Counted from the first letter of the stretch, positions 18,308-64,000 are shown. The stretch is DNA of 64,000 bases from Nitrospirota bacterium (GCA_021789555.1 JAJYJK010000004.1:47064-111063), one strand, 5' to 3'. Made by a program: numbers and translations. The notes: a model not told the origin generated them from the letters alone.

Positions 18308-18370
18308 TTTTTAGAAAAAAACATCCTTCCTCTCTGAAATTGAATAACTAAACTGCGGTACGGAAACGGC

Positions 18371-27244: not shown

Positions 27245-28377
27245 CCTTTACCGGAAGTGGGCGGCAGGTCGGAGCCGTGGATTTGCGAATGGCAGTCGGT
27301 GCACCTCGTATAAGTGGCCCGGGTGTTGAGGGCGTTTATCAGATGCCCTTCATGGCACTGGAGACAGAGGAAGGGCTGTCTCAGTTTCAAGAGGTCATCG
27401 TTTGGCGAGCCGTGCTGGTTGTGGCAGACAAGGCAGTTTTCCGTATTTTCCGCGTGCTCGTAAATGAAAGGGCCCTCCTTGTCGGCGTGGCACTGGGTGC
27501 AGGTGGCCTTGATGGTGGGCTTCCGCAAAAGCTTCGGGTTCCCCCCGTGAGGGTCGTGGCAGTCGGTGCAGAATATCTTGCCCTCGGGAACCGGATGATG
27601 GCTTATCTGGTTGAATTCGCTCTTTATGTCCTGATGGCACCTGAAACACATCGACGCCGTGTCCCTGGGGTTTACGATGAGGTCCGGCCCGTGGTGGATA
27701 TTGTGGCAGTCCTCGCAGTCCACGCCGTTTAAGGCGTGGGGGCTCGTGTTCCAGGCGTGAAGGTTGAAAGTGGCGTTTCCGGTATGGCATTTAAGGCATA
27801 TGAGGGATTTCGCGGTCGGCGGCAGGCCCTTTATGTCGATGAACGTCTTATAGTCGCAGGAGAGGGTCTTTCCCTCCTTCCGCGCCTCTTTCACCTTCCG
27901 CCGCGTAAGCCCCATTATGGCCAGGCTGCCAGGCCCGTGGCAGGACTCGCAGTCCACAATCGGAAGACCGGATTTGGGCGAAAGCTGGGCGCCCATCGTG
28001 CTTGCCTCAAAATCCCTCTTTATCTGGTCATGGTAATGGCAGGACCTCAGACAATTGGCATTGCCCACGTAATCGGCATCGAACCTGCCCGCAAGCATCT
28101 TTTCATATTCTTTTATGGGTATTAAGGGTTTTGAGGTCTTCAGGGTCTCGCAGCCCGCAGGCAGGAACAAGGCCGTCAAAATCAAAAAGGCAAGGAGCGG
28201 CAGATACCTCGAAAAGGCCGGCGAGAAGGCATTGTCCGTTTTTTTGAAGACAACACGCCCGCTCTCCGTCGAGAGATTCCATCCGGATGGATTTTCACTT
28301 TCAACAGAGGGAGTTTTTTTATTTTTTATTATTATTCGCCCGGTTGCCCCTTTTGAGGCAATACGCCTGCTCTGCAT
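27229..28377 (-). CDS. Decahaem c-type cytochrome lipoprotein (DmsE/MtrA-like)
   Basis: Nine CXXCH (CESCH, CLKCH, CEDCH, CFRCH, CTDCH, CTQCH, CLVCH, CLQCH, CTDCH) plus CLRSCH; GPF.YEH and PFLCLQCH motifs; lipobox-like LPAGC. Confidence 0.88.
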   Translation of the reverse strand: MQSRRIASKGATGRIIIKNKKTPSVESENPSGWNLSTESGRVVFKKTDNAFSPAFSRYLPLLAFLILTALFLPAGCETLKTSKPLIPIKEYEKMLAGRFDADYVGNANCLRSCHYHDQIKRDFEASTMGAQLSPKSGLPIVDCESCHGPGSLAIMGLTRRKVKEARKEGKTLSCDYKTFIDIKGLPPTAKSLICLKCHTGNATFNLHAWNTSPHALNGVDCEDCHNIHHGPDLIVNPRDTASMCFRCHQDIKSEFNQISHHPVPEGKIFCTDCHDPHGGNPKLLRKPTIKATCTQCHADKEGPFIYEHAENTENCLVCHNQHGSPNDDLLKLRQPFLCLQCHEGHLINALNTRATYTRCTDCHSQIHGSDLPPTSGKGWFTR

Positions 28378-28532: not shown

Positions 28533-29681
28533 CTAGGGGGCGGTTTTTTTTATGGCGTCCTCAATAAACCGGGCGGGGGAGCCGCCTGAAAAATGGATCC
28601 GGACAATTTCAGAGCCGATCTCCTTTGTCTGCCTGTACGTCTCGTCAACGGCCCTTTCCACCACGGCCCAGCCCTCGCGTGGGCCGTCCGTCCCTTTTTC
28701 AAGGAAAAGGCCGGCGGCCTTCTCTATCTTCACGGAGAGGAGTTTTCTGTAGCCGGCCAGAAAGGCGGCATAGAATGCTAGTGAGCCCGTTTTCTTTCCG
28801 TCCATGATGTAGCGGAGCATCCCTTCCGGGCAGGTGTCGGCGAGCACGTCTTTCAAGGCCCTGAGGTACATGGCGTGTTTGGCCTCCCGCGTCTCCATGA
28901 GCATCTCCGACCATGCCGGGCCGAGTCTTTTCCGCTCGGCCGCCTCTCCAAGCTCGTGCCTTATGTACGTCCTTAGTTCCTCCCTCGAAACGGCAGAAAG
29001 CATATCTGTCATTTCCGGCCCCGCCTCCGGGGCGGCCCCTGCCCGTTGCGCAATACCGGGGGCGACGCCGTAATACGAGAATGCCGCCCGCAGAAGGCCC
29101 GAGGGTTTTGCCCTGTATTCCTCGAATTTCTGCCATATCAGATTTTCATTGGCCTCCAGGCGGGCAAAGACGCAGTCCCCCGCGAGCATGGCGACCGCGG
29201 CCGAAAGGTCCCTTGCGTATTCCCTGCCGCAGGTGTAAATTTCGAGGCCGTCCTCTGTCTCGCTCCCGATGACGTCGGCAAGAAAGAAGGTGGCCCGAAG
29301 ATGGGGCCCGTAGCCCGCCGCGTAAACGAGCCCGCGGTCAATCAGCACCCGGTTTATGCCGGCCGAATCAAACGCGTCAAAGCGCGCGGCCTCCTCCGGG
29401 TTGTCCGCCTTCACCCCCCCCGTCTCTACCTTCAACCCCTTTATCTCGACCGGCCCGAACGGCCGACCGTCAATCTCGCCCCAAAGGGCCTCCCTTTCGC
29501 CGATCCACCCGGCAATCCGCGCATTTTCCACCTTCTGCCACGGCCGCAGGCCGTGCTCTGAGTAGTAAAGCTCCCGGAGCCTCATCAAGAGCCCGCAGAC
29601 GGAATAAAGCCCCCAGCTCCTGGCGTCCGCTATATCACAATTGCTCTTGACGCTGCTTACAAGCAGGTCATCCGGCTCCAT
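28533..29681 (-). CDS. Conserved hypothetical protein (Sfum_1244-like family, from memory)
   Basis: N-terminal NCDIADAR..GLYSVCGLLMRLRELY; CGREYARD; HELGE motif. Confidence 0.6.
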   Translation of the reverse strand: MEPDDLLVSSVKSNCDIADARSWGLYSVCGLLMRLRELYYSEHGLRPWQKVENARIAGWIGEREALWGEIDGRPFGPVEIKGLKVETGGVKADNPEEAARFDAFDSAGINRVLIDRGLVYAAGYGPHLRATFFLADVIGSETEDGLEIYTCGREYARDLSAAVAMLAGDCVFARLEANENLIWQKFEEYRAKPSGLLRAAFSYYGVAPGIAQRAGAAPEAGPEMTDMLSAVSREELRTYIRHELGEAAERKRLGPAWSEMLMETREAKHAMYLRALKDVLADTCPEGMLRYIMDGKKTGSLAFYAAFLAGYRKLLSVKIEKAAGLFLEKGTDGPREGWAVVERAVDETYRQTKEIGSEIVRIHFSGGSPARFIEDAIKKTAP

Positions 29682-30670: not shown

Positions 30671-31273
30671 TCAGATGCCGGTTTCCCGCTCCATCGCCTC
30701 CATTATCTCTCTTTTCTCCTGGTCGTCCTTGCAGTATATGGCGAAAGGCATCACCTTCAGGCGTTCGAGGTCTATCTCCTCGCCGCACTCCTCGCAGATG
30801 CCGTAGGTGCCCTCGTCGAGCTTTCTCAGGGCCTCATCGATCTTGGCCAGGTTCTCCCGGTGGGTGCTGAGCTGTTTCAGGCTTATGTCCTCGGAAAGGT
30901 CGACCACAGACCAGTCGCCGTCATCCAGGGCGGTCTCCACGATCTGCCTGTTTTCTCCGCTGATGATCCTGCCTATCTCCTTTTTCGCTTCGCCCAGGAT
31001 CATGCCGCGCTGCCGGATGAGCTCCCTTCTGAGCGCAAGCTCCCTTTCGTCGGGCGCCTCCGTCCTTGTTTTCTTCGGAGGGATTTCCGCCGCCGGGGCC
31101 GTCTTCGGCTTGGTCCTGCCGGCCGCCGCTTTCGCCTTTGCCGGGCGCGAGGTCCTTACCGGATGAGAGGTTTTTTCCGCATGGGGGGTCTTTTCCGCCT
31201 TCTTTTGCCCCGTCTGTCCCCGGGCGGACGCCTGCCTGCCCGCGGGGCCTTTCACAATTTTTTTCGGGGGCAT
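30671..31273 (-). CDS. DksA/TraR family protein with a Lys/Ala/Pro-rich N-terminal tail
   Basis: IDEAL.KL..GTYGICEECGEEI...RL..MPFA.YC. Confidence 0.85.
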   Translation of the reverse strand: MPPKKIVKGPAGRQASARGQTGQKKAEKTPHAEKTSHPVRTSRPAKAKAAAGRTKPKTAPAAEIPPKKTRTEAPDERELALRRELIRQRGMILGEAKKEIGRIISGENRQIVETALDDGDWSVVDLSEDISLKQLSTHRENLAKIDEALRKLDEGTYGICEECGEEIDLERLKVMPFAIYCKDDQEKREIMEAMERETGI

Positions 31274-31275
31274 TT

Positions 31276-31416
31276 TTATTTTTTCTCCTGCTCTGCGGGA
31301 TCGGTTTCCTTATATATCTCCTGGATGCTCCTGATCTTGATGCCTGCCTGTTGCAGGGCCTTCTGTATATCGACGGTCTTTGCGTCTTCTACTTTCAGCA
31401 TGAAATTGGATTTCAT
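31276..31416 (-). CDS. Small hypothetical protein, 46 aa (below the ORF-track cutoff)
   Basis: MKSNFMLKVEDAKTVDIQKALQQAGIKIRSIQEIYKETDPAEQEKK; fills the frr-dksA gap almost exactly; GGAGG SD in the frr 3' end. Confidence 0.75.
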   Translation of the reverse strand: MKSNFMLKVEDAKTVDIQKALQQAGIKIRSIQEIYKETDPAEQEKK

Positions 31417-31419
31417 CGT

Positions 31420-31977
31420 CTAGACCTCCATTATCTCTTTTTCCTTGGTTTCAAGAAGGCCGTCAACCTTCCCGATGTAGGAATCGGTTATTTTCTGGAC
31501 CTCGGCGATGGTCTTTTTCACCTCGTCCTCGCTCATGTGCTGGTCCTTCTCGAGCTTCTTGACGCCTTCGTTCATGTCGCGCCGGACGTTCCTGAGGGCC
31601 ACCCTCGTCTCCTCGGCCTTTTTCCTTACCACCTTAACCAGCTCGCGCCTGCGCTCCTCCGTGAGCATGGGGATTGGCAGCCTGATGAGCTTCCCGTCAT
31701 TGGCGGGCGTCAGGCCGAGGTCGGACTTCATCAGGGCCCGCTCTATCTCGCCTATCATCTTCTGCTCCCAGGGCTGAATGACTATGAGGCGGCTCTCGGG
31801 CACCGAGAGGGCGGCCACCTGCTGAAGCGGGGTGGGGGTGTTGTAGTAATCGACCATTATGCCCTCCAGGAGCGCCAGCGAGGCCCTGCCGGTCCGCACC
31901 GCATTGAATTCCTTCCGGAGGATGTCCAGGGCGGCGTCCATCCGGTGCAGGAGCTTGTCTTTCAGCGCCTTTTCCAT
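31420..31977 (-). CDS. frr: Ribosome recycling factor
   Basis: RTGRAS, VDYYNTPTPLQQVA, LTEERR.ELVK, RNVRRD. Confidence 0.97.
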   Translation of the reverse strand: MEKALKDKLLHRMDAALDILRKEFNAVRTGRASLALLEGIMVDYYNTPTPLQQVAALSVPESRLIVIQPWEQKMIGEIERALMKSDLGLTPANDGKLIRLPIPMLTEERRRELVKVVRKKAEETRVALRNVRRDMNEGVKKLEKDQHMSEDEVKKTIAEVQKITDSYIGKVDGLLETKEKEIMEV

Positions 31978-31978
31978 A

Positions 31979-32758
31979 TCACTCTATTATAGTGCCTACT
32001 TTCTTGCCCGCGAGGAGGCCCTTTATGTTGCCTCTCCCCTTGAGATTAAATACCACAATCGGCATGTGGTTGTCCATACATAAAGTTATGGCGGTGGAAT
32101 CCATCACCTTGAGGCCCTTCCTTATCACGTCCAGGTAGGATATCCTGTCGAACTTCTTCGCCCTGGGGTCCTTGATCGGGTCGGCCGAATAGACGCCGTC
32201 GACCTTGGTCGCCTTGAAGATCACGTCCGCGCCGATTTCCATGGCCCTCAGGGCCGCGGCGGTGTCCGTGGTGAAGTAAGGGTTTCCGGTGCCGGCGGCG
32301 AAGATGACGACCCTGCCCTTTTCGAGGTGCCTTACCGCCTTTCTCCTTATATACGGCTCGGCAAGCTCGCGCATCTCTATGGCGGACTGCACCCTGGTGG
32401 GGATGCCCAGCTTCTCAAGGGCGTTCTGGACGGCAAGGGCGTTTATGACTGTCGCAAGCATGCCCATGTAATCCGCCGCGGAGCGCTCCATGCCCTGGGC
32501 CGACGCCTCGACGCCCCTGAATATGTTCCCGCCGCCTATGACGAGGGCCACCTGGACGCCGGTCTTCAGCGTCTCCCGGACCTCGCGGGCTATGTAATCG
32601 ACGGTCCCGGGGTCTATCCCGTAAGAGCGTTCCCCCATCAGGGCCTCGCCGCTTAGCTTTATCAGAAGGCGCGTGAAGACGGGTTTCTTCACCTTTTTGG
32701 GGGCGGGGCCGCCCCTGCTATTTCGCACTTTTGCTTTCGCCAAGCTGGTACCTTGCAA
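31979..32758 (-). CDS. pyrH: UMP kinase (exact start uncertain, overlapping the tsf end)
   Basis: [33 protein letters not shown]. Confidence 0.96.
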
Positions 32759-33320
32759 AACGCCTGACTACGATGTTTTCCCCGATCTTGGCCACCTTTT
32801 CGGTGATGATGTCCTTCACCTTCTTCTTGCCCTCCGGGTCCTTCACGAATATCTGGTCCAGGAGGCAGCTCTCCTCGTAAAACTTCTCGATTTTCCCCTG
32901 GATTATCTTTTCGACGACATGGTCCGGCTTGCCCTGGACCTGCGCCTTGTAGATTTCCTTCTCGTGGTCGAGGACGTCCTGGGGGACGTCCTCCCGCTGC
33001 AGATAGGCCGGGCTTGCCGCCGCCACGTGCATGGCGATGTCCTTTGCGAGCCCCCGGAAATCATCCGTGCGGGCGACGAAGTCCGTCTCGCAGTTCAGTT
33101 CCAGCAGCACGCCTATCTTGTCCATGTGGATATAGGAGCTTACGAGTCCCTGGGAGGCCGCGCGCGCGGACTTTTTCTGCGCGGTCGCCATCCCCTTCTG
33201 CCTGAGGATGTCGACTGCCTTGTCCAGGTCCCCGCCGGAGGCCTCAAGGGCCTTTTTGCACTCCATCATCCCTGCGCCGGTTTTCTCCCGCAGGTCCCTG
33301 ACCAGTTCCGCCGTAATCAT
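32718..33320 (-). CDS. tsf: Elongation factor Ts (short form)
   Basis: [35 protein letters not shown]. Confidence 0.97.
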
Positions 33321-34159
33321 TGCGCCGCCCCCTCCGGGAGTTCGCCTGCCGAAACGGCGCTCTCCGGGGGCTTTACTCCGGTCAAACCGGCGGGGGCCGC
33401 CTCGGCCGGAGCGGCTTCCTCCGAGGCCTTCTTTTCCTCTATCTTCGCATCCTCGGCCACCTGCGCCGTCTTCTTGTTGTATATCTCCCTGCCTGTTATC
33501 ACGGCTTCGGCCATCTTGGAGGATATGAGCGTTATGGCCCTGATGGCGTCATCGTTGCCGGGGATGACATAATCTATCTCATCCGGGTCGCAGTTCGTGT
33601 CGACTATCGCCACCGAGGGAATGGAGAGCTTCCTTACCTCCGAGACCACTATCCTCTCCTTCTTGGGGTCGACGATAAAGACCGCCCCCGGAAGCGAGGT
33701 CATGCCCTTTATGCCGCTCAGGTTTTTATCCAGCTTGGCCCTTTCCTTCTCGATACGGGACACTTCCTTTTTGGTGAGGCGGTTATACGTGCCGTCCTCG
33801 CGCATCACGTCTATCTTTTTAAGCCTGTCGATGCTCTTCCTGACCGTCTGGAAATTGGTCAGCATCCCGCCCAGCCAGCGCTGGTTCACCCAGAAAACGC
33901 CGGCCCTCTTCGCCTCTTCCGAGATGGAGTCCTGGGCCTGCTTTTTCGTGCCCACAAATAAAACGGTCTGATTTTCCGCCGCCACATCCCGGATGAAATT
34001 GTAGGCCTCTTCGAGCCCCTTCAGGGTCTTTTGCAGGTCGATGATGTAGATACCGTTTCTTTCCCCGAAGATGTACCGCTTCATCTTGGGGTTCCATCTC
34101 TTGACCTGGTGCCCGAAATGGACGCCGGCCTCGAGAAGCTCCTTCATTGTCGCTATCAT
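33317..34159 (-). CDS. rpsB: 30S ribosomal protein S2
   Basis: [38 protein letters not shown]. Confidence 0.98.
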
Positions 34160-34179
34160 TGTTTGCCCTTCCTCCTTCA

Positions 34180-34256
34180 GGTTTTTATCCTCCGTCCTCG
34201 CCCCTTCACCCGGAGCATCCGAGACCAGCCGGGGTCGATTTGCCGGACGTGTGTAA
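34180..34256 (-). ncRNA. rpsB 5' leader (S2 autoregulatory structure)
   Basis: Minus strand ACACACGTCC...CCCCGG...CCGGG...GGACGGAGG...AAAAACC: outer CGTCC/GGACG stem and inner CCCGG/CCGGG stem, matching the ACACAC...GGAGG layout of rpsB leaders. Confidence 0.65.
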
Positions 34257-34439
34257 GTTAGCTTATTAGCTTAGCATGTAAACCTCTTTTTTACAAGATT
34301 AATTAAGGATTTGCACGCCCACCCGCCTTCTGCCTTATATCCAATTGCTTGCGCCGGCACTGTTTGAAAAACGCCGGGCGATGGCGGCGCTATCTTCCGT
34401 AGTTTCAGTCTTGGGAGGACCGTGTTAAAATCACATACC

Positions 34440-47289: not shown

Positions 47290-48606
47290 ATGAAGATTGC
47301 CCGCAAAACGATAGCCGGCCTGCTGCCGGCCCTTTCCCTCTGCCTCGCGGTGGCCGTCCGGCTCGCGGCGGGGCCGGACGTCGCCCTCGCCTTCCATAAC
47401 GGGGGCACCGGGGACTGTGGCGACTGTCACACCACGCACAGGGCCGGGGCCATTGCCGAAAATGCCGCAACGGCGCAAGGCGTTTATATGTTGAAGGGGT
47501 CTGACGCGAGTTCGACATGCCTGAACTGCCATCAGGCGGCCGGCCTGGCGGGGCCGACCGGCCAGTATGTAAGCACCCCGGAGTCCGAGATGCCGGCCGG
47601 CGTCCCTCCAAAACAGATGACGCCCGGCGGAGATTTCGGCTGGCTCAAAAAAAATTACACCTGGAAGGCGCCCGGCTCCGGCATGCGGGCAAGCCCTGGA
47701 TACATGCACGGCCACAGCATAGTCGCAGTCGATTACGGCTACAGCGCGGACCCGGTAATCACGAGGGCCCCCGGCGGCGCGTATCCCGCCTCGGCCCTTT
47801 CATGCACCAGTTGCCATGACCCGCACGGGACCTACCGGAGGATCATAAACGGCGCGATTGCCTCCTCGGGGGCGAAGATCTGCAATTCCGGCTCATACGA
47901 CACAAGCCCAGACCCCACTGCGGACTGCCCTGTCGGGGTCTACAGGCTCCTCGGGGGCATCGGATACCAGCCCGCAAGCCTTAACGGTTACTCGTTTACC
48001 GCCGACCCTCCGGCCGCCGTCGCTCCATCGGTCTACAACAGGTCCGAGGAAACGACCGAGACCCGTGTCGCCTACGGCTCCGGGATGTCCGAATGGTGCG
48101 AAAACTGCCATTCCATAAATCCCGGCAACGGCCGGCACAGCCACCCGGCCGGCAGTCCGGCCAAGCTGGGGACCCTGGCCAAATACTACAATATGTACGT
48201 AAAGAGCGGGGATGTTACCGGCACCAGCGCCTCCTCCTATTCATCGCTTGTACCCTTCGAGGAGGGCACATCCGACTACAGGACCCTTCGGTCCCACGCC
48301 AAAAACGACGACTCCTACCTGCGGGGGCCGGACGCAAACTCCAACGTCATGTGCCTTACCTGCCACCGGGCGCACGCATCGGGCTGGGATTTCGGCCTGC
48401 GGTTCAACACGTACGACCAGGACTTCATTACAACGGAGGCCCAGACGGGCGCCCCCCTCTGGCCGGGCACCGACACGACCCGCAACGCGCAATGGTCCAT
48501 GGGGCGGACATCCGAGGAGACCAGAAGGGCCTACTACAATATCCCCGCAAGGAGGCTCTCGCCATACCAGAGGACGCTCTGCAACAAATGCCACATCCGG
48601 GACTAA
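47290..48606 (+). CDS. OmcS-like hexahaem c-type cytochrome, copy 1
   Basis: Signal peptide ending ALA-FHNGG; six CXXCH; colinear OmcS motifs QMTPGGDFGW, GH.IVA.DY, APGG.YP, CHDPHG.YRR, RVAYG.GMSEWC.NCH, PFEEGT.DY, CHRAHASG, YQR.LCNKCH..D. Confidence 0.92.
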   Translation: MKIARKTIAGLLPALSLCLAVAVRLAAGPDVALAFHNGGTGDCGDCHTTHRAGAIAENAATAQGVYMLKGSDASSTCLNCHQAAGLAGPTGQYVSTPESEMPAGVPPKQMTPGGDFGWLKKNYTWKAPGSGMRASPGYMHGHSIVAVDYGYSADPVITRAPGGAYPASALSCTSCHDPHGTYRRIINGAIASSGAKICNSGSYDTSPDPTADCPVGVYRLLGGIGYQPASLNGYSFTADPPAAVAPSVYNRSEETTETRVAYGSGMSEWCENCHSINPGNGRHSHPAGSPAKLGTLAKYYNMYVKSGDVTGTSASSYSSLVPFEEGTSDYRTLRSHAKNDDSYLRGPDANSNVMCLTCHRAHASGWDFGLRFNTYDQDFITTEAQTGAPLWPGTDTTRNAQWSMGRTSEETRRAYYNIPARRLSPYQRTLCNKCHIRD

Positions 48607-48683
48607 CGCAGCCCCCGGAATTTGAGGTCTTTTGCCAATTACATCTTTACATTTTCAAATGCTGCATTTTAAAATATAGCCGC

Positions 48684-50096
48684 ATGAAAGAGACAGTGGT
48701 TGCCTTGGCCCTTATGGCGATGGTCATCGCCGGTATTGACGGTAAGGGGTGGGCGTTCCACGACGGCGGCGTCGGCGCATGCGACGGATGCCACACGATG
48801 CACAACTCCATCGGCGGCCAGCCGGTGCAGCTCAAAAACGGGGCCGTACCCTCCGCCACCGTGGGCCAGGCGTCCAACGCATACCTGATGAAGGGCACGG
48901 ACCCCAGCTCCACCTGCCTTAATTGCCACCAGGAGACGGGAAACGCGGCCGCCACCGGCCAGTTCATAAGCACCTCCCCGGCGGACATGCCCGCCGGCTA
49001 TCCGCCCATAGAGCTCACCCCCGGAGGGGATTTCGGATGGCTCCAAAAAACATATACATGGGTGTACAGCGGCACGCAGTACACCGACCCGGGCCAAAAC
49101 CACGGGCATAACATCGTCGCGGCCGATTTCAATTACGTGAAGGACTCCACAATCATAACGGCCCCGGGCGGCACATATCCCGCCTCCGCCCTCTCCTGCA
49201 TAAGCTGCCACGACCCCCACGGAAAATACAGGAGAAACTCTGGCGGAAGCATCACAAAGGGCGGGAGCCCCATAATCGGGTCCGGCTCCTACAATACAAG
49301 CCCGACCCCCGCGGCGGGCCAGGCAGTAGGCGTTTACAGGCTCCTGGGAGGCGTTGGATACCAGCCGGGTTATCTGCTGGGCAGTTATGCCTTTAGCTAC
49401 GCCCCGCCGCCCGCCGTCGCCCCATCGGTCTATAACCAGTCGGAGAGCACCTATCCGGTCCGCGTGGCCTACGGCAGCGACGGCTCCAGCAACGGGATGT
49501 CCTTCTGGTGCAGAAACTGCCATCCGAATATACACACCTCCAGCGGCCCGTCGGCGCCCTTGAACGTCTATAATCAAACGTACAGTTTCCCGCAAACCCA
49601 CCCGATTGAGAGCTATTTGAGCATGGGAACAAACAACAATTACAACGCGTATATAGAATCGGGGGTCTACACGGGCACTCAGAGCACATCCTACTGGTCC
49701 ATCGTGCCCTATGAGGAAAACAACTTGAATTACTCGACCCTTGCATCCCACGCAAACAATAACGGCAGCTATCTTACGGGACCGTCAAGCAGCGACTACG
49801 TCTCCTGCATGACCTGCCACAGGGCGCACGCCACGGGATGGGACTACATGCTCCGCTTCAACTATTTGGGCATACCGGACGGCAACCACGGCTGGACCCA
49901 GATCATAGACGACAACAGCGGCGGAGCGGTTTGGCCGGACCCGGTCCTCGACCCTTATAAGGCCATGGGACGCACCACAACGGAAACGCAGCAGGCCTAT
50001 TACGGCAGACCGGCAACCACCTACGCGGCCGTCCAGTACGTCCTGTGCAATAAATGCCATTACGCCGGCATGATGGGCGGGGGCAGCGGCCGGTAA
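48684..50096 (+). CDS. OmcS-like hexahaem c-type cytochrome, copy 2
   Basis: Start at MKETVVALAL; mature FHDGGVGACDGCHTMHNS; six CXXCH; same OmcS motifs, with insertions. Confidence 0.9.
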   Translation: MKETVVALALMAMVIAGIDGKGWAFHDGGVGACDGCHTMHNSIGGQPVQLKNGAVPSATVGQASNAYLMKGTDPSSTCLNCHQETGNAAATGQFISTSPADMPAGYPPIELTPGGDFGWLQKTYTWVYSGTQYTDPGQNHGHNIVAADFNYVKDSTIITAPGGTYPASALSCISCHDPHGKYRRNSGGSITKGGSPIIGSGSYNTSPTPAAGQAVGVYRLLGGVGYQPGYLLGSYAFSYAPPPAVAPSVYNQSESTYPVRVAYGSDGSSNGMSFWCRNCHPNIHTSSGPSAPLNVYNQTYSFPQTHPIESYLSMGTNNNYNAYIESGVYTGTQSTSYWSIVPYEENNLNYSTLASHANNNGSYLTGPSSSDYVSCMTCHRAHATGWDYMLRFNYLGIPDGNHGWTQIIDDNSGGAVWPDPVLDPYKAMGRTTTETQQAYYGRPATTYAAVQYVLCNKCHYAGMMGGGSGR

Positions 50097-57217: not shown

Positions 57218-58504
57218 GTGTTTACTTACATCGTGAGGGCGCTCTCCGGGCTGAGGCTGGACTTCGCGGTCCTCCGGTCGCTAAAAAACCGCAACTACCG
57301 GCTCTTCTTCGTCGGCCAGGGCGTCTCGCTCATCGGCACATGGATGCAGCAGATAGCCATGAGCTGGCTTGTCTATCGCCTGACGGGGTCGGCGCTGCTT
57401 CTGGGGGTGGTGGGGTTTTCCGGCCGGATACCCTCTTTCCTGCTGGCCCCCGTGGCGGGCGTGCTGGCAGACAGGTGGAACAGGCGCCGCCTGCTGGTGG
57501 TCACGCAGTCGCTTGCCATGCTGCAGGCCTTTTGCCTCTCGGCGCTCATCCTGACGAAGACCATCACGATATGGCAGCTCATAATGTTTAGCGTCATCCT
57601 CGGGTGCGTAAACTCCTTCGACATCCCAACGAGGCAGGCCTTTGTCGTGGAGATGCTCGAGAAAAAAGGGGACCTTGGAAACGCCATAGCCCTGAATTCC
57701 TCGCTCGTAAACGGGGCGAGGCTCATCGGCCCCGCTATCGCCGGGATCCTCATAGCGGCCGTCGGCGAGGGGATTTGCTTTCTTCTAAACGGGATAAGCT
57801 ACATAGCGGTCATCGCGGCCCTGCTCATGATGGGGATAAGAAAACCCGCGGCGCAGGCGCAGGCAAAAAAAGGCTTCATGCACGAACTCCGCGAAGGCTT
57901 TTCCTACGCCTTCGGATTTTCGCCCATAAGACATATCCTTTTGCTGCTTGCCCTGATGAGCTTCATGGGCATGCCCTACCAGGTGCTGATGCCCATCTTC
58001 GCCGGCGGCATCCTCAAGGGCGGCCCGCACACCCTGGGTTTTCTCATGGGCGCATCGGGCCTCGGCGCCCTGGGGGGCGCGGTATTTCTTGCCTCGAGGA
58101 AAAGCTCCCCGCGCCTGGGCATGACAACGCCGCTTGCGGCGGCCGTCTTCGGCGCCGGGCTCATGGCCTTTTCCCGGTCCCGCCTGCTCTGGCTGTCGCT
58201 GCCGGTGATCTCCGTCGCCGGGTTCGGCATGATGGTGCAGATGGCCTCAAGCAACATGATACTGCAGAGCATCGTGGACGACCGCAGGAGGGGCCGGGTG
58301 ATGAGCTTGTTTACGATGGCCTTCATGGGCATGGTCCCCTTCGGCAGCCTGCTGGCCGGCTGGCTTGCAAGCCGGATAGGCGCACCCTCCACCCTCTTTG
58401 CAAGCGGGTTTTGCTGTGTCGCGGGCGCGCTGCTGTTTTCAACCCGGCTGCCCGCGCTTAAAAAAGAGCTTGCGCCCGTTTACGAGCAGAAGGGGATAGC
58501 GTGA
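57218..58504 (+). CDS. MFS transporter (EntS/MFS_3-like)
   Basis: RNYRLFF.GQ.VS..GTWMQ, GVLADRW.RRR, about 12 TM helices, RGRVMS. Confidence 0.9.
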   Translation: MFTYIVRALSGLRLDFAVLRSLKNRNYRLFFVGQGVSLIGTWMQQIAMSWLVYRLTGSALLLGVVGFSGRIPSFLLAPVAGVLADRWNRRRLLVVTQSLAMLQAFCLSALILTKTITIWQLIMFSVILGCVNSFDIPTRQAFVVEMLEKKGDLGNAIALNSSLVNGARLIGPAIAGILIAAVGEGICFLLNGISYIAVIAALLMMGIRKPAAQAQAKKGFMHELREGFSYAFGFSPIRHILLLLALMSFMGMPYQVLMPIFAGGILKGGPHTLGFLMGASGLGALGGAVFLASRKSSPRLGMTTPLAAAVFGAGLMAFSRSRLLWLSLPVISVAGFGMMVQMASSNMILQSIVDDRRRGRVMSLFTMAFMGMVPFGSLLAGWLASRIGAPSTLFASGFCCVAGALLFSTRLPALKKELAPVYEQKGIA

Positions 58505-58507
58505 TCT

Positions 58508-60151
58508 TTACTTGGCCCGCCCGGCGTCTTGTTTTTTCAGTTCTTCTTCCGCCATGCCCAGGTTGCGGCCCGCCTGGGCGTATCCGGGGTATATCCGGAG
58601 CGCGGTCTGGAATTCACCGATCGCCTCCCGGTAACGGCCCATCTTCCCGTACACCGCGCCCAGGTTGTTATGCGCCACCGCACTGTCGGGTTTCAGGTCC
58701 ACCGCGATTGTGAGCTCCCGCACCGCGTCATTCAGCCGTCCAAGCTGCGTAAACGCCATGCCCAGGTCATCATGCGCCTCTGAATAATAGGGGTTGATGC
58801 TTATGGCGGTCTCGAACTCCCCTATCGCGCGCGGCAACTTCCCGATCTTCAGGTAGGCCGTGCCGAGGTTATTATAGGCGTCCACGTTTCCGGGGTCCGC
58901 CCGGACCATGCTCTGGTAGAGGTCAAGATTGTCCCACCAGACAAAATTCCTCTCGAAGGTCCTCACCTCGAAGGAAACGGCTATAAGTATTATGAGGGCG
59001 ACCCCGGCCGGCGGGACCTTCCTGTATGCCTGCCGGAGCGCGTAGCCGGCCATGAGGGCAAATCCCGCCGCCGGAAGATAATAGAACCTCTCGGCCACCG
59101 GGGCGCTCGGTATCGGGATGATGTCCGACACCGGCAGGACCATCCACAAAAACCAGAGGGCCCCCGCCCGCAGCGGAGCGGGTGTCTTTTTCCTCACCGC
59201 AAGGAAGATGAGCATGGCCAGCCATAAAACCGAGAGCAGGGATTTCAGCCAGCTAAAGGGCGCCATCGACTGGTTTGTATAGAGGGCGTTGAGATTGAAA
59301 GGAAAGACCATGAGCCTCGCGCCCTCAAAAACCACATTCGAAATGAATACAAGCCTGCCTGCCGAAAACCGGATGCCCTCCCCCGAGGCGTACATGCCGA
59401 GCGCCGCCCGTCTCAAGACCATATACCCCGCAGCCGCCGCGAAAAAAGCCGGCAGTGTCATCCACCATTTTTTTACAGGCCGCCATTTTTGGGCCCCCGC
59501 AAAATTTTCACCGGGCAGCAGGAGCGCCAGGCAGAGGAGGAAAAAGGGCAGCGCCACCGTCTGCTCCTTGCTCAAGAGGGAAAGAAAAAACAACCCCGCC
59601 GCGGCAAGGACAAAGACCCGCTTGGGGCCTCCTTTTTTGAGGACAAGCAGAGACCCGAAGACAAACGCCGCGTTTAACAGCGTGTTTCTCGCGGAGATAA
59701 AATCGACCGCCTCCGCGTTTACCGGGTAGAGCGCAAAGAGCAGGGCCGATATGAAGGCAAGCGCGCCGTCCCCGAAAACCTCCGCCACAAGCAGGTAGAA
59801 GACAAGGACGCAGACGGCGTGCAGGAGCAGGTTTTCAAGATGATACCAGAACGGGTTTTGCCCCCAGAGATGATAGTCCATCATGAAGGTAAGAATGCTC
59901 AGCGGCCTGTAATACGGGGTCTTGACGGCCTGGGCATTGTCGGCCGTTTTAAGGATGGCGAGCGCGTTGCCCGGGTCGCTGAAGAACTGGCCCTTCTCCA
60001 CTATCAGGTAATGGTCGTCCCATACGAAACCGGCGGACAGGCTGTTCCAGTACGCCGCGACAACGGCGAGGAGCAGCAAAAGGACGGCGAGCCTCCGGTT
60101 TAAGGCCAGGCCAAACAGCCGCACATCCCCATTGCCGCTTTTATTTTCCAT
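58508..60151 (-). CDS. TMTC-like polytopic membrane glycosyltransferase (GT-C) with C-terminal TPRs, copy A
   Basis: FVWDD, YYRPL, YHLENLLLH, LFALYPVNAEAV..ISAR, LLSKE, AERFYY, RNFVW, then NNLG-type TPRs. Confidence 0.75.
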   Translation of the reverse strand: MENKSGNGDVRLFGLALNRRLAVLLLLLAVVAAYWNSLSAGFVWDDHYLIVEKGQFFSDPGNALAILKTADNAQAVKTPYYRPLSILTFMMDYHLWGQNPFWYHLENLLLHAVCVLVFYLLVAEVFGDGALAFISALLFALYPVNAEAVDFISARNTLLNAAFVFGSLLVLKKGGPKRVFVLAAAGLFFLSLLSKEQTVALPFFLLCLALLLPGENFAGAQKWRPVKKWWMTLPAFFAAAAGYMVLRRAALGMYASGEGIRFSAGRLVFISNVVFEGARLMVFPFNLNALYTNQSMAPFSWLKSLLSVLWLAMLIFLAVRKKTPAPLRAGALWFLWMVLPVSDIIPIPSAPVAERFYYLPAAGFALMAGYALRQAYRKVPPAGVALIILIAVSFEVRTFERNFVWWDNLDLYQSMVRADPGNVDAYNNLGTAYLKIGKLPRAIGEFETAISINPYYSEAHDDLGMAFTQLGRLNDAVRELTIAVDLKPDSAVAHNNLGAVYGKMGRYREAIGEFQTALRIYPGYAQAGRNLGMAEEELKKQDAGRAK

Positions 60152-61964
60152 GGTCCGTTTCTTTCGGGATATTTTCGGGGTTTGAGATCAGGGCCAGATA
60201 TCTGGCGGCTGTCTGATTGGCGGGGTCGAGGCGAAGGACGCCCAGGAACTCCTCTCTCGCCTCCTCAAGATTGCCCAGCCTCGCGCTGATTACTCCTGCA
60301 TTGATGCGCGCCTCAATGAAACCGGGGTCCAGCCGGAAGGCCATTTTAAATTCGTGGAGCGCCCCTTGCGGATTTCCGGAAGCCGCATAGGCCTGGCCAA
60401 GCCAGGCGTGAACGTCCGGACTGTCCGGCGTCAGCTTTCCGGATGTCTCAAGCTCCCGCACCGCATCCCGCAGACGGCCTTCATGCAGATATATTATCCC
60501 GAGGTTTTCGTGGGCATCGGCATATCCGGGGCTGATGCCGATGGCCATTTGGATCTCCCTCATGGCGTCTTCCATACGCCCCAGTTTCCGGTAGACGACG
60601 CCCAGGTTAAAATGGGCCCTGGCAAAACCAGGCTGCAGGACAACCGCTGCCTGAAAGGCCTTCGCCGCGTCATCGAGGCTGCCTTGTTTTTCCAGGACAT
60701 AGCCGAGATTATTATAAGCGATCTGGTTTTTCGGGTCCGAGCGGAGCACGCTTTGATAGAGGCCCAAATCGCTCCTCCAGACCCGGTTTCTCTCGAATGT
60801 CCTTACACCCAGGACAAGGACAAGCGCCATGGCCGCGACCACTCCGGAGCCGGCCCGCTTTTTATTCAAAACCGCCAAAAGATAGCCGAGGACAGCGACA
60901 AAACCGAAAAGAAACGTGTATTGATACCTTTCAGCCACCGGGGTGCTGGGTATCCTGACAATGTTCGATACGGGCAGTAGCCCCCACAAAATCCACTGCG
61001 CTCCGGCGCGCACCGGCTCCGGGGTCCTTTTAACAACGGCCAGCAAGACAAGAGACAAAACGCCCAGGATTGAAAATAAGGCCTTTGGCGCGGTAAAAGG
61101 CAGGGTCCCCGTCAAATATATGGCGTTAAGCTTGAAGGGGTACAGCATGAGCCGGAATTCTTCAAAAAGGGAAGACGAAACAAGCTTCAGATTATCGATT
61201 GAAAAGACAATGCCCTGTCTCGAGGTGAAAGCGCCGATTACCATATATCTCAAGACAAAATACAGGGCCGTCGTCATGAAAAAAACGGCAAGCGCGGCTT
61301 TCCCCGTTTCATGCGTCTTTTCCCTTGTGGTCAGAGTGTAGGAGAGGAGGAAAAAGGGCAGGACTATGGCGGGCTCCTTGCTCATAAGGGCGAGAAAGTA
61401 AGATATAACGGACATGCCAGTCCATTTAAACCCTCTTTCCCTCAGGAATAAAAGTGAGGAGATCAAAAACAACGCGCATAAAAGGCTGTTTCTGGCCGAG
61501 ATGAAATCGACCGCCTCCGCGTTTACGGGGTATACGGCAAACAGCAAGGCCGCGAAAAAGGCAAGCGCGCCGTCCTTGAATTCCGCGAGCAAAAGCAGAT
61601 AGAAAAGCGAGACGACGCACGCGTGCAGGAGCACAGCTTCCAGGTGGTATCCGAAAGGTCTCGGTCCCCACAAATAGTGGTCGAGCAAGTATGACATCGC
61701 ACCTAAAGGCCGGTAATAGGGGTTTGAATTGCCGATTTCGGCCCCGGTGTTATCGGGCGAGGTCAAAATGGAGGGGATGTTCCTCAAATCGGAGAAAAAC
61801 CCCTGCCTGGAAACTACAAGGTAATGGTCATCAAAGACGAAACCGGAGTGGAGACTGTTGCCGTACGTGGCGGCCACCACAATGGCCAATAGCGCTATGG
61901 AAAGCCTCTTGTTTGCAAACAGGCCCCTGGCTCCCGGGGCCTTGCCCGGAGACTCTATAGACAT
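60141..61964 (-). CDS. TMTC-like GT-C/TPR protein, copy B
   Basis: FVFDD, YYRPL, YHLEAVLLH, YPVNAEAV, LMSKE, AERYQY, RNRVW, multiple TPRs. Confidence 0.75.
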   Translation of the reverse strand: MSIESPGKAPGARGLFANKRLSIALLAIVVAATYGNSLHSGFVFDDHYLVVSRQGFFSDLRNIPSILTSPDNTGAEIGNSNPYYRPLGAMSYLLDHYLWGPRPFGYHLEAVLLHACVVSLFYLLLLAEFKDGALAFFAALLFAVYPVNAEAVDFISARNSLLCALFLISSLLFLRERGFKWTGMSVISYFLALMSKEPAIVLPFFLLSYTLTTREKTHETGKAALAVFFMTTALYFVLRYMVIGAFTSRQGIVFSIDNLKLVSSSLFEEFRLMLYPFKLNAIYLTGTLPFTAPKALFSILGVLSLVLLAVVKRTPEPVRAGAQWILWGLLPVSNIVRIPSTPVAERYQYTFLFGFVAVLGYLLAVLNKKRAGSGVVAAMALVLVLGVRTFERNRVWRSDLGLYQSVLRSDPKNQIAYNNLGYVLEKQGSLDDAAKAFQAAVVLQPGFARAHFNLGVVYRKLGRMEDAMREIQMAIGISPGYADAHENLGIIYLHEGRLRDAVRELETSGKLTPDSPDVHAWLGQAYAASGNPQGALHEFKMAFRLDPGFIEARINAGVISARLGNLEEAREEFLGVLRLDPANQTAARYLALISNPENIPKETDHGK

Positions 61965-61988
61965 GGCGCTCCCAAAAAAATATATCCC

Positions 61989-63779
61989 CTAATTGCCCCC
62001 GGGGGTGGGACTTCCGCCCGCCGGTTTTACCAGCGGCAGGTCCCTGGCCGCAATGGCGTTTCCGGGGTCGATGGACAAAACGGTCTCGAACTCCCGCCTG
62101 GCGTCCGCGTAGCGGCCCTGCCTGAAGTAGATCACCCCCAGGTCGTTATGGGCAGTGACGTTGCCGGGGTCCAGGGCGAGGACTTTTACAAATTCCCGCG
62201 ATGCCTCTTCAGTGAGGCCCTGCCGCAAACGGGTTATCGCCAGGTTCAGGTGCGCGTCGGACCTCTGCGGGTTTAATTCCACCGCCCCGCGGAATTCGCG
62301 GGCGGCGTCCTCAAGCCTGTCCAGCCCGGCCAGCGCCACCCCCAGGTGTATGCGGGCCGTGTAGAAATCCGAATCGAACGAGACGGCGGCCCGGAACTCC
62401 CGCACCGCCCCTTCGAGGTCGCCCGTCTTCATATATGCAAGCCCAAGGCCGTCGCTGGCCTCCGGATAATCGGGCTGACGCGCGAGGGCCGCCTGGAACT
62501 GCCCGGCCGACTCGTCAAACCTGCCTGCGTCATATAAAGAGCGCGCCAGGTAGTAATGCGCGGTGGGGTTTCCGGGGTCCGACCGGACCATGCTCCGATA
62601 GATGCTGAGATTACCGCGCCAGTCAAAATTCCTCTGGAATGTCCTAGCCCCCAGGATGATGACAAGCAGGGCCAGCAACAACATCGCAGGCAGCGCCCTT
62701 CTCCTGTACAGCGCGGCAATTGCGTAGCCAAGGATGAGGACAAACCCAAACAGTATCGTGTACTGATATCTTTCCGCCACCGGGGCGCTCGGTATCATGA
62801 CTATGTTGGAGACGGGCAGCAGCCCCCACACTATCCACTGGGCCCCGGCGCGCACCGGTCCGCTCGTCCCCCGTCCGATAGAAAGATAAAGAAGCGCCGC
62901 GAGGCCGGAGACGGCAATCACCGCCCTCAAGGGAGTGAAGAACACATCGAGCATCGAATAATAGGCGTTCAGGCTGAACGGCCAGAGCATCATGTGGAAA
63001 TTCTCGAAGAGGACCGCCGACATGAATTTCAGCCTCTCGACCGAAAACTCAAGGCTCTGGTTGGACGCAAAAACGCCGAGTACCGCCTGCCGGATAAGAA
63101 AATAAACGGCGGTTATCACGAAAAAACCGGCGAACGTCTTCCACCCTACCCTGAATCTTTTTTCATCCCTTGCGAAAAGGGTGAAGGTCAGGAGAAAAAA
63201 CGGCTCCACCACGGCCGGCTCCTTGCTGAGGAGGGCCAGGAAATATGCGGCAAATGAAAGCGCGGTCCATTTCGCCCCCTTCCTTGAAAGCGCAAGCAGC
63301 GAGGCCATAAGAAACAGGGCGCAAAGGAGGGTGTTTCTTGCCGAGATGAAATTCACGGCCTCCGCGCAGACCGGATAGACCGCAAACAGCAGGGCGGAAA
63401 AAAAGGCCATCAGTTCGTCCTCGAAGACGCGGGCCACAAGAAGGTAAAAAAACACTACCACGAGCGCGTGCAGCAGGACGTCTTCCAGGTGGTACCATAG
63501 GGGGTTTAGGCCCCAGAGGTAATGGTCCAGCATGTAGGTAAGCGTGTTTAACGGGCGGTAGTAAGGGGTCGCCTCATTATTGGTGGTGTCCCGCTGGGCA
63601 AACGCCGAAAACGTGTTTTCCGGATGGCTGAAAAAAGCGCTCTTGTTTATTACCGTGTCCCGGTCATCGAGGACAAAGCCGGAAATCAGGCTGTTGGAAT
63701 AGACGATGCCGACGGCAATCAGCAGGGCCGCGATGGCGATCTTTTTGTTCAGTATGGCGCTTTTTATCCAATCGATCAT
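61989..63779 (-). CDS. TMTC-like GT-C/TPR protein, copy C
   Basis: FVLDD, YYRPL, YHLEDVLLH, YPVCAEAV, LLSKE, AERYQY, RNFDW, multiple TPRs. Confidence 0.75.
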   Translation of the reverse strand: MIDWIKSAILNKKIAIAALLIAVGIVYSNSLISGFVLDDRDTVINKSAFFSHPENTFSAFAQRDTTNNEATPYYRPLNTLTYMLDHYLWGLNPLWYHLEDVLLHALVVVFFYLLVARVFEDELMAFFSALLFAVYPVCAEAVNFISARNTLLCALFLMASLLALSRKGAKWTALSFAAYFLALLSKEPAVVEPFFLLTFTLFARDEKRFRVGWKTFAGFFVITAVYFLIRQAVLGVFASNQSLEFSVERLKFMSAVLFENFHMMLWPFSLNAYYSMLDVFFTPLRAVIAVSGLAALLYLSIGRGTSGPVRAGAQWIVWGLLPVSNIVMIPSAPVAERYQYTILFGFVLILGYAIAALYRRRALPAMLLLALLVIILGARTFQRNFDWRGNLSIYRSMVRSDPGNPTAHYYLARSLYDAGRFDESAGQFQAALARQPDYPEASDGLGLAYMKTGDLEGAVREFRAAVSFDSDFYTARIHLGVALAGLDRLEDAAREFRGAVELNPQRSDAHLNLAITRLRQGLTEEASREFVKVLALDPGNVTAHNDLGVIYFRQGRYADARREFETVLSIDPGNAIAARDLPLVKPAGGSPTPGGN

Positions 63780-63799
63780 ATTGATCCTGCCGTTTGGTC

Positions 63800-64000
63800 C
63801 TACCGGCCTTGCAGCATCTGTTCGGCCCGCTCCAGGTTCCTCATCGCAAGCCCAAACCCTGGCCCGGCGGCCAGGACGGCCTTTTGAAACTCCTTCACCG
63901 CGTCTTTGATGTCCCCCTCGGTCTCATAGGCCAGCCCGAGGTTATTGAGCGCCACGGCGTTGCCGGGATTCAGATTGACCGCTGTCTGAAACTCCGCCAT
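63800..64000 (-). CDS. C-terminal TPR end of an upstream gene, probably a fourth array member (5' part outside window)
   Basis: EFQTAV.LNP..A.A.NNLG.AY...EFQ.A...PG...A.RNL..AE resembles the C-terminus of copy A. Confidence 0.65.
   Translation of the reverse strand: MAEFQTAVNLNPGNAVALNNLGLAYETEGDIKDAVKEFQKAVLAAGPGFGLAMRNLERAEQMLQGR

Follow-up and report, generated by a model that had tools for sequence, protein, structure and literature searches.

What do the products of a row of adjoining genes do, when databases label them in most cases just 'TPR protein' (tetratricopeptide repeat protein)? The question is raised by one end of a 64,000-nucleotide stretch of DNA from a Nitrospirota bacterium (GCA_021789555.1, JAJYJK010000004.1:47064-111063; G000:C49:47064-111063 in the numbering used here), which is referred to below as the window. 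From position 58508 to its last base, the minus strand of the window carries a tandem array of paralogous genes. Their products are very probably GT-C glycosyltransferases that use a lipid-linked sugar, and the evidence for both the enzyme class and the donor route is good. The reading developed here is that they are periplasm-facing enzymes of a bacterial branch of the TMTC lineage, with secreted or envelope proteins as likely acceptors; taken as a whole, it has an even chance of being right.

Organization of the array

The array comprises five tandem paralogues, A to E, all on the minus strand, with a sixth copy on another contig, and it continues past the window into a further 6.7 kb of the contig (region L001). 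The same operon, with four GT-C genes, is found in a close relative (locus L003). From the last gene to the first, the operon reads:

58508..60151, minus strand: paralogue A, 547 amino acids (aa); predicted GT-C membrane domain at residues ~1-402 and a TPR tail of ~145 aa, with TPR Pfam matches; the operon's last gene; 1:1 orthologue in L003
60141..61964, minus strand: paralogue B, 607 aa, overlapping A by 11 nt; the copy that was modelled; without an orthologue in L003
61989..63779, minus strand: paralogue C, 596 aa; orthologue in L003
63800..64000, minus strand: last 66 residues (TPR tail) of paralogue D; the complete gene (579 aa) extends to window-equivalent position 65539 and corresponds to L001 6864-8603
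L001 8590-10506, minus strand, upstream and beyond the window: paralogue E, 638 aa
L001 10503-11486, minus strand, beyond the window: methyltransferase, 327 aa
L001 11483-12241, minus strand, beyond the window: family 2 glycosyltransferase (GT2), 252 aa
L001 12316-13812, minus strand, beyond the window: SGNH-TPR protein, the operon's first gene, running off the contig end

Since its members overlap by 4-14 nt or are separated by gaps of 20-75 nt, the array and the genes upstream of it are probably one transcription unit. An earlier note on this DNA, which counted three complete paralogues and a probable fourth, placed the three correctly and understated the array, as the fourth gene is complete and a fifth exists. 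When the genome was searched with a profile hidden Markov model of the membrane domain, the only further match was the sixth copy, on contig C73. A search of sequencing runs found the source DNA in mine-drainage, mine-tailings and sediment metagenomes.

In an alignment of the five tandem copies, B-E are 43-48% identical to A and 121 columns are invariant, including FVxDD, YYRP, YHLE..LLH, YP..AE.V..SARN, SKE, AERxxY and RN..W; every motif listed by the earlier note is thus invariant. Motif sharing lies far above chance and 1:1 orthologues exist in the related genome, which confirms that the array consists of real, conserved genes.

Fold and topology of the membrane domain

An AlphaFold (AF2) model of copy B, built from 58 relatives, has a pLDDT of 93.5; according to DSSP, it has 11 membrane helices, after which TPR hairpins begin at residue 399. 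A Foldseek-independent structure search (VIA-align) gave the following matches over model residues ~10-420:

ArnT (5f15_A): Z 21.2, 330 residues aligned, root-mean-square deviation 4.5
AglB (3waj_A): Z 21.0
Pmt1-Pmt2 (6p2r_B): Z 19.7, 339 residues aligned
STT3 (6s7t_A): Z 19.5
ALG12: Z 18.9
Pmt4: Z 18.8
PglB: Z 18.4

As modelled, the membrane domain of copy B is a GT-C fold, and the structural match for which the earlier note had called is present at Z 18-21. Other searches were dominated by the repeats: Foldseek with the full copy B model returned TPR proteins only from the PDB, and in searches of PDB sequences with full-length copy B and with the full-length profile, TPR matches crowded out the rest. 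The membrane domain of copy B, compared with PDB sequences by phmmer, matched just SurE, at chance level (E 0.01). The ESM Atlas supplied no more than leads: bacterial clusters with PMT_2 in 21-30% of their members (score 0.98) and, at rank 22, a eukaryotic cluster of DUF1736 proteins (score 0.93).

In the model, with its 11 helices, the TPRs share one side with three loops, namely the DD loop (which follows helix 1), the SKE loop and the AER..Y loop. This side is inferred to be extracytoplasmic because solved GT-C enzymes all show such an orientation; the model thereby agrees with the initial proposal that DD and the TPRs face the periplasm, the sidedness being assigned by analogy. Counts of Lys and Arg in the loops of copy B (the positive-inside rule) show no clear sidedness, and the cytoplasmic loops are very short. 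A predicted complex of the membrane domains of E and D, which might have paired in the manner of Pmt1-Pmt2, scored 0.00 against a mark of 0.32 and carries no weight either way.

Relationship to the TMTC lineage

Animal TMTC1-4 (CAZy GT105; Pfam PMT_2, TMTC_DUF1736 and TPR) are protein O-mannosyltransferases of the endoplasmic reticulum that act on cadherins. According to the available part of PMC7801869, they have helices I to XI and the motifs DD, ..YRP, KE and ERxxY. The array proteins keep this order, as had been proposed, with DD and YRP in loop 1, KE in loop 3 and ERxxY in loop 5; like TMTC1-4, they are predicted to have 11 membrane helices and then TPRs on the non-cytoplasmic side. The likeness extends to full-length profile homology with bacterial proteins bearing TMTC_DUF1736, a comparison made with these bacterial proteins and not with human TMTC itself. 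In particular, a profile of the clade aligned with a profile of eight bacterial DUF1736 proteins with an hhalign probability of 100% (E 1.2e-64, 395 columns, the loop-4 region included), and the copy B membrane domain found bacterial PF08409 proteins by phmmer at E 1e-30 to 1e-15. Some of these PF08409-bearing relatives carry the Joint Genome Institute (JGI) name 'protein O-mannosyl-transferase', and among the 58 aligned relatives TMTC_DUF1736 is found in 13 and PMT_2 in 13.

On the five proteins themselves, TPRs are the only Pfam or NCBIfam matches above cut-off. PMT_2 scored 17.9 and 23.5 bits on the proteins (copy C having the higher score) against a cut-off of 26.1; a six-frame search gave 26.7 bits for copy C, 25.2 for E, 21.2 for B and 31 for the sixth copy. 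For MIR and PF02366, no match is listed in the Pfam scans of the five proteins.

The catalytic positions are well conserved. DD is invariant in 5/5 copies and 58/58 aligned relatives and is present in 147-148 of the 150 nearest cluster representatives, among which RP is kept by 149, K196 by 140, E197 by 141 and Y349 by 144. DD, YRP, the helix-2 His pair, E150, R158, K196-E197 and E-R..Y are all invariant or nearly so across the copies and relatives. The earlier note was right that Tyr-Pro replaces His-Pro in the array: of the 150 nearest representatives, 130 have His and 10 have Tyr at this position.

The proteins are therefore filed as members of a bacterial TMTC-like lineage rather than as proven GT105 enzymes. 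The lineage comprises 54,729 cluster representatives at E 1e-3 and 18,967 at E 1e-10. The word 'undescribed', which had been applied to the system, is too strong for a family of tens of thousands of members whose bacterial orthologues (TMTC/GT105) are mentioned in the accessible text of a 2025 review (PMC12757957); GT105 also appears in the bacterial data of dbCAN-based surveys, as far as their accessible portions go. A literature search, beyond whose reach lay most subscription journals, found no experiment on any bacterial member. The locus is an ordinary member of a large, little-studied family; what it adds is a compact operon, clade-specific active-site changes and a counted link with OmcS-type cytochromes.

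Probable donor synthesis and the other genes of the operon

The GT2 protein matches only four PDB sequences, namely dolichyl-phosphate-mannose (Dol-P-Man) synthase 5mlz (E 4e-9) and three ArnC entries. Its best NCBIfam matches (AglJ, PpgS and a Dol-P-hexose transferase) are all under cut-off, and it has no hydrophobic segment, as in a soluble protein. A putative polyprenyl-phosphate-sugar synthase, as predicted for the region past base 64000, is thus present upstream in the operon in the form of a DPM1/ArnC-like GT2. It is 55% identical to a GT2 of a Myxococcota metagenome-assembled genome that sits among three GT-C/TPR genes, themselves ~26% identical to those of the array. It is probable that the operon's GT2 makes the lipid-linked donor.

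The counts that follow refer to a sample of 201 Nitrospirota genomes. The GT-C family is present in 105 of them, several with at least nine copies, and a GT2 orthologue in 41. Among genomes with the GT2, 40/41 also have the GT-C family, compared with 65/160 of those without it, a contrast that is indicative only, as the genomes are kin. At the GT2 loci of other genomes (n = 29), a GT-C gene lies within 1.5 kb in 15 and a methyltransferase homologue in seven.

The methyltransferase carries a zinc ribbon at its N terminus and is tail-anchored by one hydrophobic helix at its C terminus, an arrangement that, to judge by sequence, would suit action at the membrane. The SGNH-TPR gene is complete in L003 (5682-8258, P0121), where it encodes 858 aa with one N-terminal membrane helix. 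Residues ~108-470 of the L003 protein match SGNH/GDSL esterases, mostly carbohydrate esterases but also PatB (Z 14-16), and the remainder is TPR; the SGNH-fold protein contains an inserted pair of TPRs and ends in a long tail of TPRs, and its Ser, Gly-Asn and His are invariant. Its family, labelled just 'TPR protein', numbers at least 7,245 at E 1e-5 among 7,999 scored candidates and is ~50% identical across phyla (Planctomycetota, Aminicenantes, Nitrospirota). As a general partner of the system it was rejected, since it lies within 1.5 kb of the GT2 orthologue at 0/29 loci of other Nitrospirota genomes.

Similar combinations of genes are known elsewhere. The array proteins resemble PMT/Pmt enzymes (GT39; fungi and actinobacteria, with Ppm1 as donor synthase) in the GT-C fold, in the loop-1 acidic pair, in the DPM1-type GT2 for a polyprenyl-phosphate-sugar donor and in their weak PMT_2 matches; they differ in having TPRs where the MIR domain stands and in scoring at or under the PMT_2 cut-off on protein scans. 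With ArnT/ArnC and Gtr-type systems, the operon shares a polyprenyl-phosphate-charging GT2 encoded beside its GT-C enzyme, and the likeness to ArnT/ArnC extends to the top structural match and to the ArnC entries matched by the GT2. Unlike in those systems, however, the GT2 of the array has no membrane helices and the GT-C enzymes have TPR arms and exist in five copies; moreover, the operon lacks the GtrA flippase that completes the Gtr-type set of three components (GT2, GtrA and GT-C). Unlike TMTC1-4, the array is set in a bacterial periplasm, and its tandem genes have a GT2 and a methyltransferase of their own.

PMT_2-type GT-C genes without TPR tails stand beside some arrays (L005 4592-6241 and 7677-9398; L053 9128-10810), and this genome has its own (C72:40389, C98:7803 and C30:97982). 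The one on C72 adjoins a second GT2 paralogue, forming an ArnT/ArnC-like pair.

Divergence of the paralogues

Tandem copies also occur in other loci, numbering at least seven in L004 and at least three in L005. Four of the copies (A, C, D and E) have one L003 counterpart each (1:1, support 100/100), and B is unpaired. Between orthologues of the array and L003, the TPR tails are 77-84% and the membrane domains 74-81% identical, whereas between paralogues the tails are 37-50% and the membrane domains 47-61% identical, with tail lengths of 145-241 aa; these figures cover pairs of A-E, the sixth copy (F) being excluded. Separate roles of the paralogues are suggested because the tails diverge more than the membrane domains between paralogues and are equally conserved between orthologues. 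The TPR tail of each paralogue may choose a different substrate.

Association with OmcS-type cytochromes

Two tandem cytochrome genes lie on the plus strand of the window:

47290..48606, plus strand: OmcS homologue 1, 438 aa, six CxxCH motifs, signal peptide, Ser+Thr 17.4%; phmmer match to PDB 6ef8_A (Geobacter OmcS) at E 5.8e-137 over the whole mature protein
48684..50096, plus strand: OmcS homologue 2, ~470 aa from an internal Met of the open reading frame (ORF) 48093-50096, six CxxCH motifs, Ser+Thr 17.8%; match to an OmcS-like query at G000:C49:95765-97126, E 1.6e-120

Their Ser and Thr content compares with 9.6 +/- 2.0% in 36 other proteins of the window, which bears out the mention, in the earlier note, of Ser/Thr-rich surface cytochromes. 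The pair is isolated within a neighbourhood of housekeeping genes. Across the genome, OmcS-like sequences were matched seven times: twice on C49, three times on C4 and once each on C74 and C104.

Across the phylum, OmcS-like genes occur in 21/201 genomes. The GT-C family is present in 20/21 of these as against 85/180 others, and the GT2 orthologue in 15/21 as against 26/180. Moreover, 11 of the 21 have an OmcS-like gene and a GT-C gene no more than 10 kb apart, where one or two genomes would be expected by chance according to a rough estimate that was not computed. In seven genomes of one Nitrospirota family (G131, G143, G081, G042, G075, G115 and G155), ~2.0-2.5 kb separates the last GT-C gene from the first OmcS-like gene. 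In G075, this gap holds a 329-aa ORF (L050 2933-3922) without a Pfam match, which could be a conserved companion.

Of three large arrays viewed in other Nitrospirota genomes, two are flanked by multihaem cytochromes, NHL propellers, a PpiC-type isomerase and long composite proteins; the six-haem cytochromes among them are homologues of the window ORF that resolves into the two tandem OmcS genes. Proteins of ~1,000 aa stand by the large arrays of two genomes (L048 17050-19995, L049 142-3156, L051 1260-4379 and L053 14866-17862); Pfam finds a spermidine-synthase-like domain in 4/4, and in L051 1260-4379 also an MFS-like N-terminal part and C-terminal TPRs.

It has been reported that OmcS and OmcE filaments are glycosylated and that OmcZ is not (PMC9473688, accessible portion). 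In Geobacter and Geomonas, 15-70 genes, which encode GT2, GT4 and GT39 enzymes, methyltransferases and TPR proteins, follow omcE, and they are said to be absent where the filament lacks glycan density (PMC13712944, accessible portion). The accessible text of PMC9473688 and PMC13712944 does not name the responsible enzyme, and that of the latter contains no experiment on these genes. The array resembles the omcE-adjacent clusters of PMC13712944, as far as that text describes them, in combining GT2, GT39-type, methyltransferase and TPR proteins near a filament cytochrome gene; unlike them, it belongs to another phylum, concerns OmcS rather than OmcE, and lies 8.4 kb from the cytochrome genes instead of next to them.

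Another cytochrome region of the window (25241-28377, minus strand) contains a gene for a nine-haem cytochrome (Paired_CXXCH_1) and then one for a 667-aa secreted protein without a Pfam match, and is preceded by a gene for a DUF6866 protein (28533-29681); the region possibly encodes an electron conduit of the outer membrane. In G075 and G155, GT-C arrays are likewise flanked by homologues of the nine-haem cytochrome. As an acceptor, this cytochrome (27229-28377) was dropped, as its Ser and Thr content of 13.9% is not notably rich.

A possible mechanism

In the proposed mechanism, the soluble GT2 would use a nucleotide sugar to charge polyprenyl phosphate with one sugar on the cytoplasmic side of the membrane, as its relatives suggest. 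The tail-anchored methyltransferase, presumed to use S-adenosylmethionine, may then methylate the lipid-linked sugar, a speculative step. A flippase, for which the operon offers no candidate, would turn the lipid-linked sugar to the periplasmic side. There, each of the five paralogues would transfer the sugar to an acceptor by means of the loop-1 Asp-Asp, the loop-3 Lys-Glu and the loop-5 Glu-Arg..Tyr, if the chemistry follows that of related enzymes, and its own periplasmic TPR arm would present the acceptor.

A GT-C match, DD loops predicted to face the periplasm and a candidate donor route were all found; none of the three outcomes that the earlier note had named as fatal to its proposal (no GT-C match, a cytoplasmic DD, no lipid-linked donor pathway) occurred.

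Which acceptor?

TPR arms usually hold proteins. A protein acceptor is favoured because of this property, because the characterized relatives act on proteins and because arrays are linked to OmcS-like genes; the chances that the acceptor is a protein are evenly divided. Among the named candidates, which are speculative, the Ser/Thr-rich nanowire cytochromes of OmcS type in this genome come first, and it is unlikely, though worth considering, that an OmcS-type cytochrome is the acceptor. A fuller proposal is that the array, GT2 and methyltransferase together form machinery that decorates OmcS-type nanowires, each TPR arm docking a subunit, unfolded or folded, so that a (possibly methylated) hexose would be placed on a distinct surface Ser/Thr; this is improbable in so specific a form.

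A number of observations weigh against the reading of the array as TMTC-like enzymes that modify envelope proteins, OmcS-type cytochromes among them. Unlike in TMTC1-4, TMTC_DUF1736 (PF08409), the signature of the loop that joins helices 7 and 8, is not matched by the five proteins at E 0.01-0.1, nor anywhere in the genome in a six-frame search at E 10, and His-Pro has become Tyr-Pro. In alignments with bacterial DUF1736 proteins, not human TMTC, the acid of the RxD-type motif in loop 2 (M3) is Ser, Thr or Ile in 5/5 copies, and the Asp of the loop-4 D-Y/W motif (M5) is retained in copy D alone and lost in 4/5. The M5 Asp of TMTC has been proposed to bind metal (PMC7801869, accessible portion). 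Because both positions also vary among the 150 nearest representatives, these changes do not set the clade apart. The top structural match is ArnT, with Pmt within ~1.5 Z of it. No flippase gene is present in the operon, and the genome's one GtrA-family gene (PF04138) lies on contig C40 beside another GT2 and an epimerase; the GtrA flippase and the pilin for which the region past base 64000 was to be checked are both missing from the operon. The nearest GT2 orthologue of the sample, 78% identical and from genome G031, has only housekeeping genes around it, and no RNA dataset was found among the sequencing runs that contain this DNA. With regard to the cytochromes, eight housekeeping genes and the MFS gene fill the 8.4 kb between the OmcS homologues and the array, and no GT-C gene was found in the stretch examined around the genome's three other OmcS loci. 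The same holds for the stretches examined in 10/21 OmcS-bearing genomes, several of whose contigs are short, and the genomes with close linkage span just three families, which amounts to few independent events.

A tentative alternative is that the proteins are glycosylated broadly or on other targets, such as pilins, lipoproteins or outer-membrane proteins, and that the proximity of OmcS reflects the clustering of envelope genes. Only one of the four OmcS-like loci of this genome is near the array, with housekeeping genes in between, the GT-C family occurs in 85/180 genomes without OmcS, and the Myxococcota locus (L006) has no cytochrome gene across its 21 kb, all of which is consistent with this explanation. 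However, no pilin or other obvious acceptor gene lies in or beside the operon, and the linkage with OmcS in 11/21 genomes is well above the one or two roughly estimated.

Alternatively, the same chemistry might serve a non-protein acceptor: the paralogues would take sugars from a shared donor and add or branch them on a periplasmic or outer-membrane glycan or lipid (such as lipopolysaccharide, exopolysaccharide or lipoglycan), with a different linkage for each copy, and the SGNH-TPR protein would add or remove O-acyl groups of that glycan. ArnT, the best GT-C match (Z 21.2), is a lipid A transferase, and in mycobacterial arabinan and mannan synthesis several GT-C enzymes draw on one polyprenyl-phosphate sugar. 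A glycan or lipid acceptor is favoured because of this match and this precedent and because the operon's first gene encodes a membrane-anchored periplasmic SGNH-fold protein that resembles acetyl-xylan and other carbohydrate esterases as well as PatB; a gene with mainly such matches suits a glycan target equally. TPR proteins are also known from polysaccharide export (BcsC, PgaA and AlgK), and NCBIfam BcsC and PgaA give weak, TPR-level matches here, far under their cut-offs. Nevertheless, an acceptor of this kind is rather doubtful. The operon contains no Wzx, Wzy, ABC-exporter or polymerase gene, the SGNH gene is no general partner of the GT2 and the arrays are linked with OmcS-like cytochromes; furthermore, TMTC1-4, the sole characterized relatives of this branch, act on folded proteins (accessible portions of PMC7801869 and PMC10214176).

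That sugar transfer has been lost and the proteins now serve as TPR scaffolds or chaperones anchored in the membrane, helping for instance to export or assemble cytochrome filaments, is very unlikely because the catalytic residues are conserved and a dedicated donor-synthase gene is retained in the operon and tracks the family across genomes, although Pfam does not recognize TMTC_DUF1736, His-Pro has changed to Tyr-Pro and two acidic positions are lost.

Neighbouring genes

The array ends against a convergent gene:

57218..58504, plus strand: MFS_3 transporter (Pfam MFS_3, E 4e-62), its stop 3 nt from the stop of paralogue A; marks the end of the array

A convergent MFS_3 gene likewise closes the arrays in L004 (11390-12649) and L005 (6272-7516), which differ in size, and in L003 a 428-aa ORF (17063-18349) occupies the equivalent place. 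Elsewhere in the window, crude ORF calls in a 3.7-kb region (~30700-34400), at 31066-31992, 32327-32656, 32673-33572 and 33597-33971, lack Pfam matches and give unnatural-looking translations.

Significance

With 54,729 cluster representatives, the bacterial TMTC relatives are among the largest glycosyltransferase families for which no experimental study was found. The locus described here offers a compact example, in which a donor synthase, a methyltransferase and five long-separated paralogues share one putative operon. The array family tracks OmcS-type cytochromes in Nitrospirota and thereby offers a concrete candidate for the enzymes behind the coating of cytochrome nanowires. If the proposed link with nanowires is true, the copy number of the array would set the coating of the filament and hence its insulation, bundling or protection; if the acceptors are glycans, the arrays would be a new route to envelope polymers.

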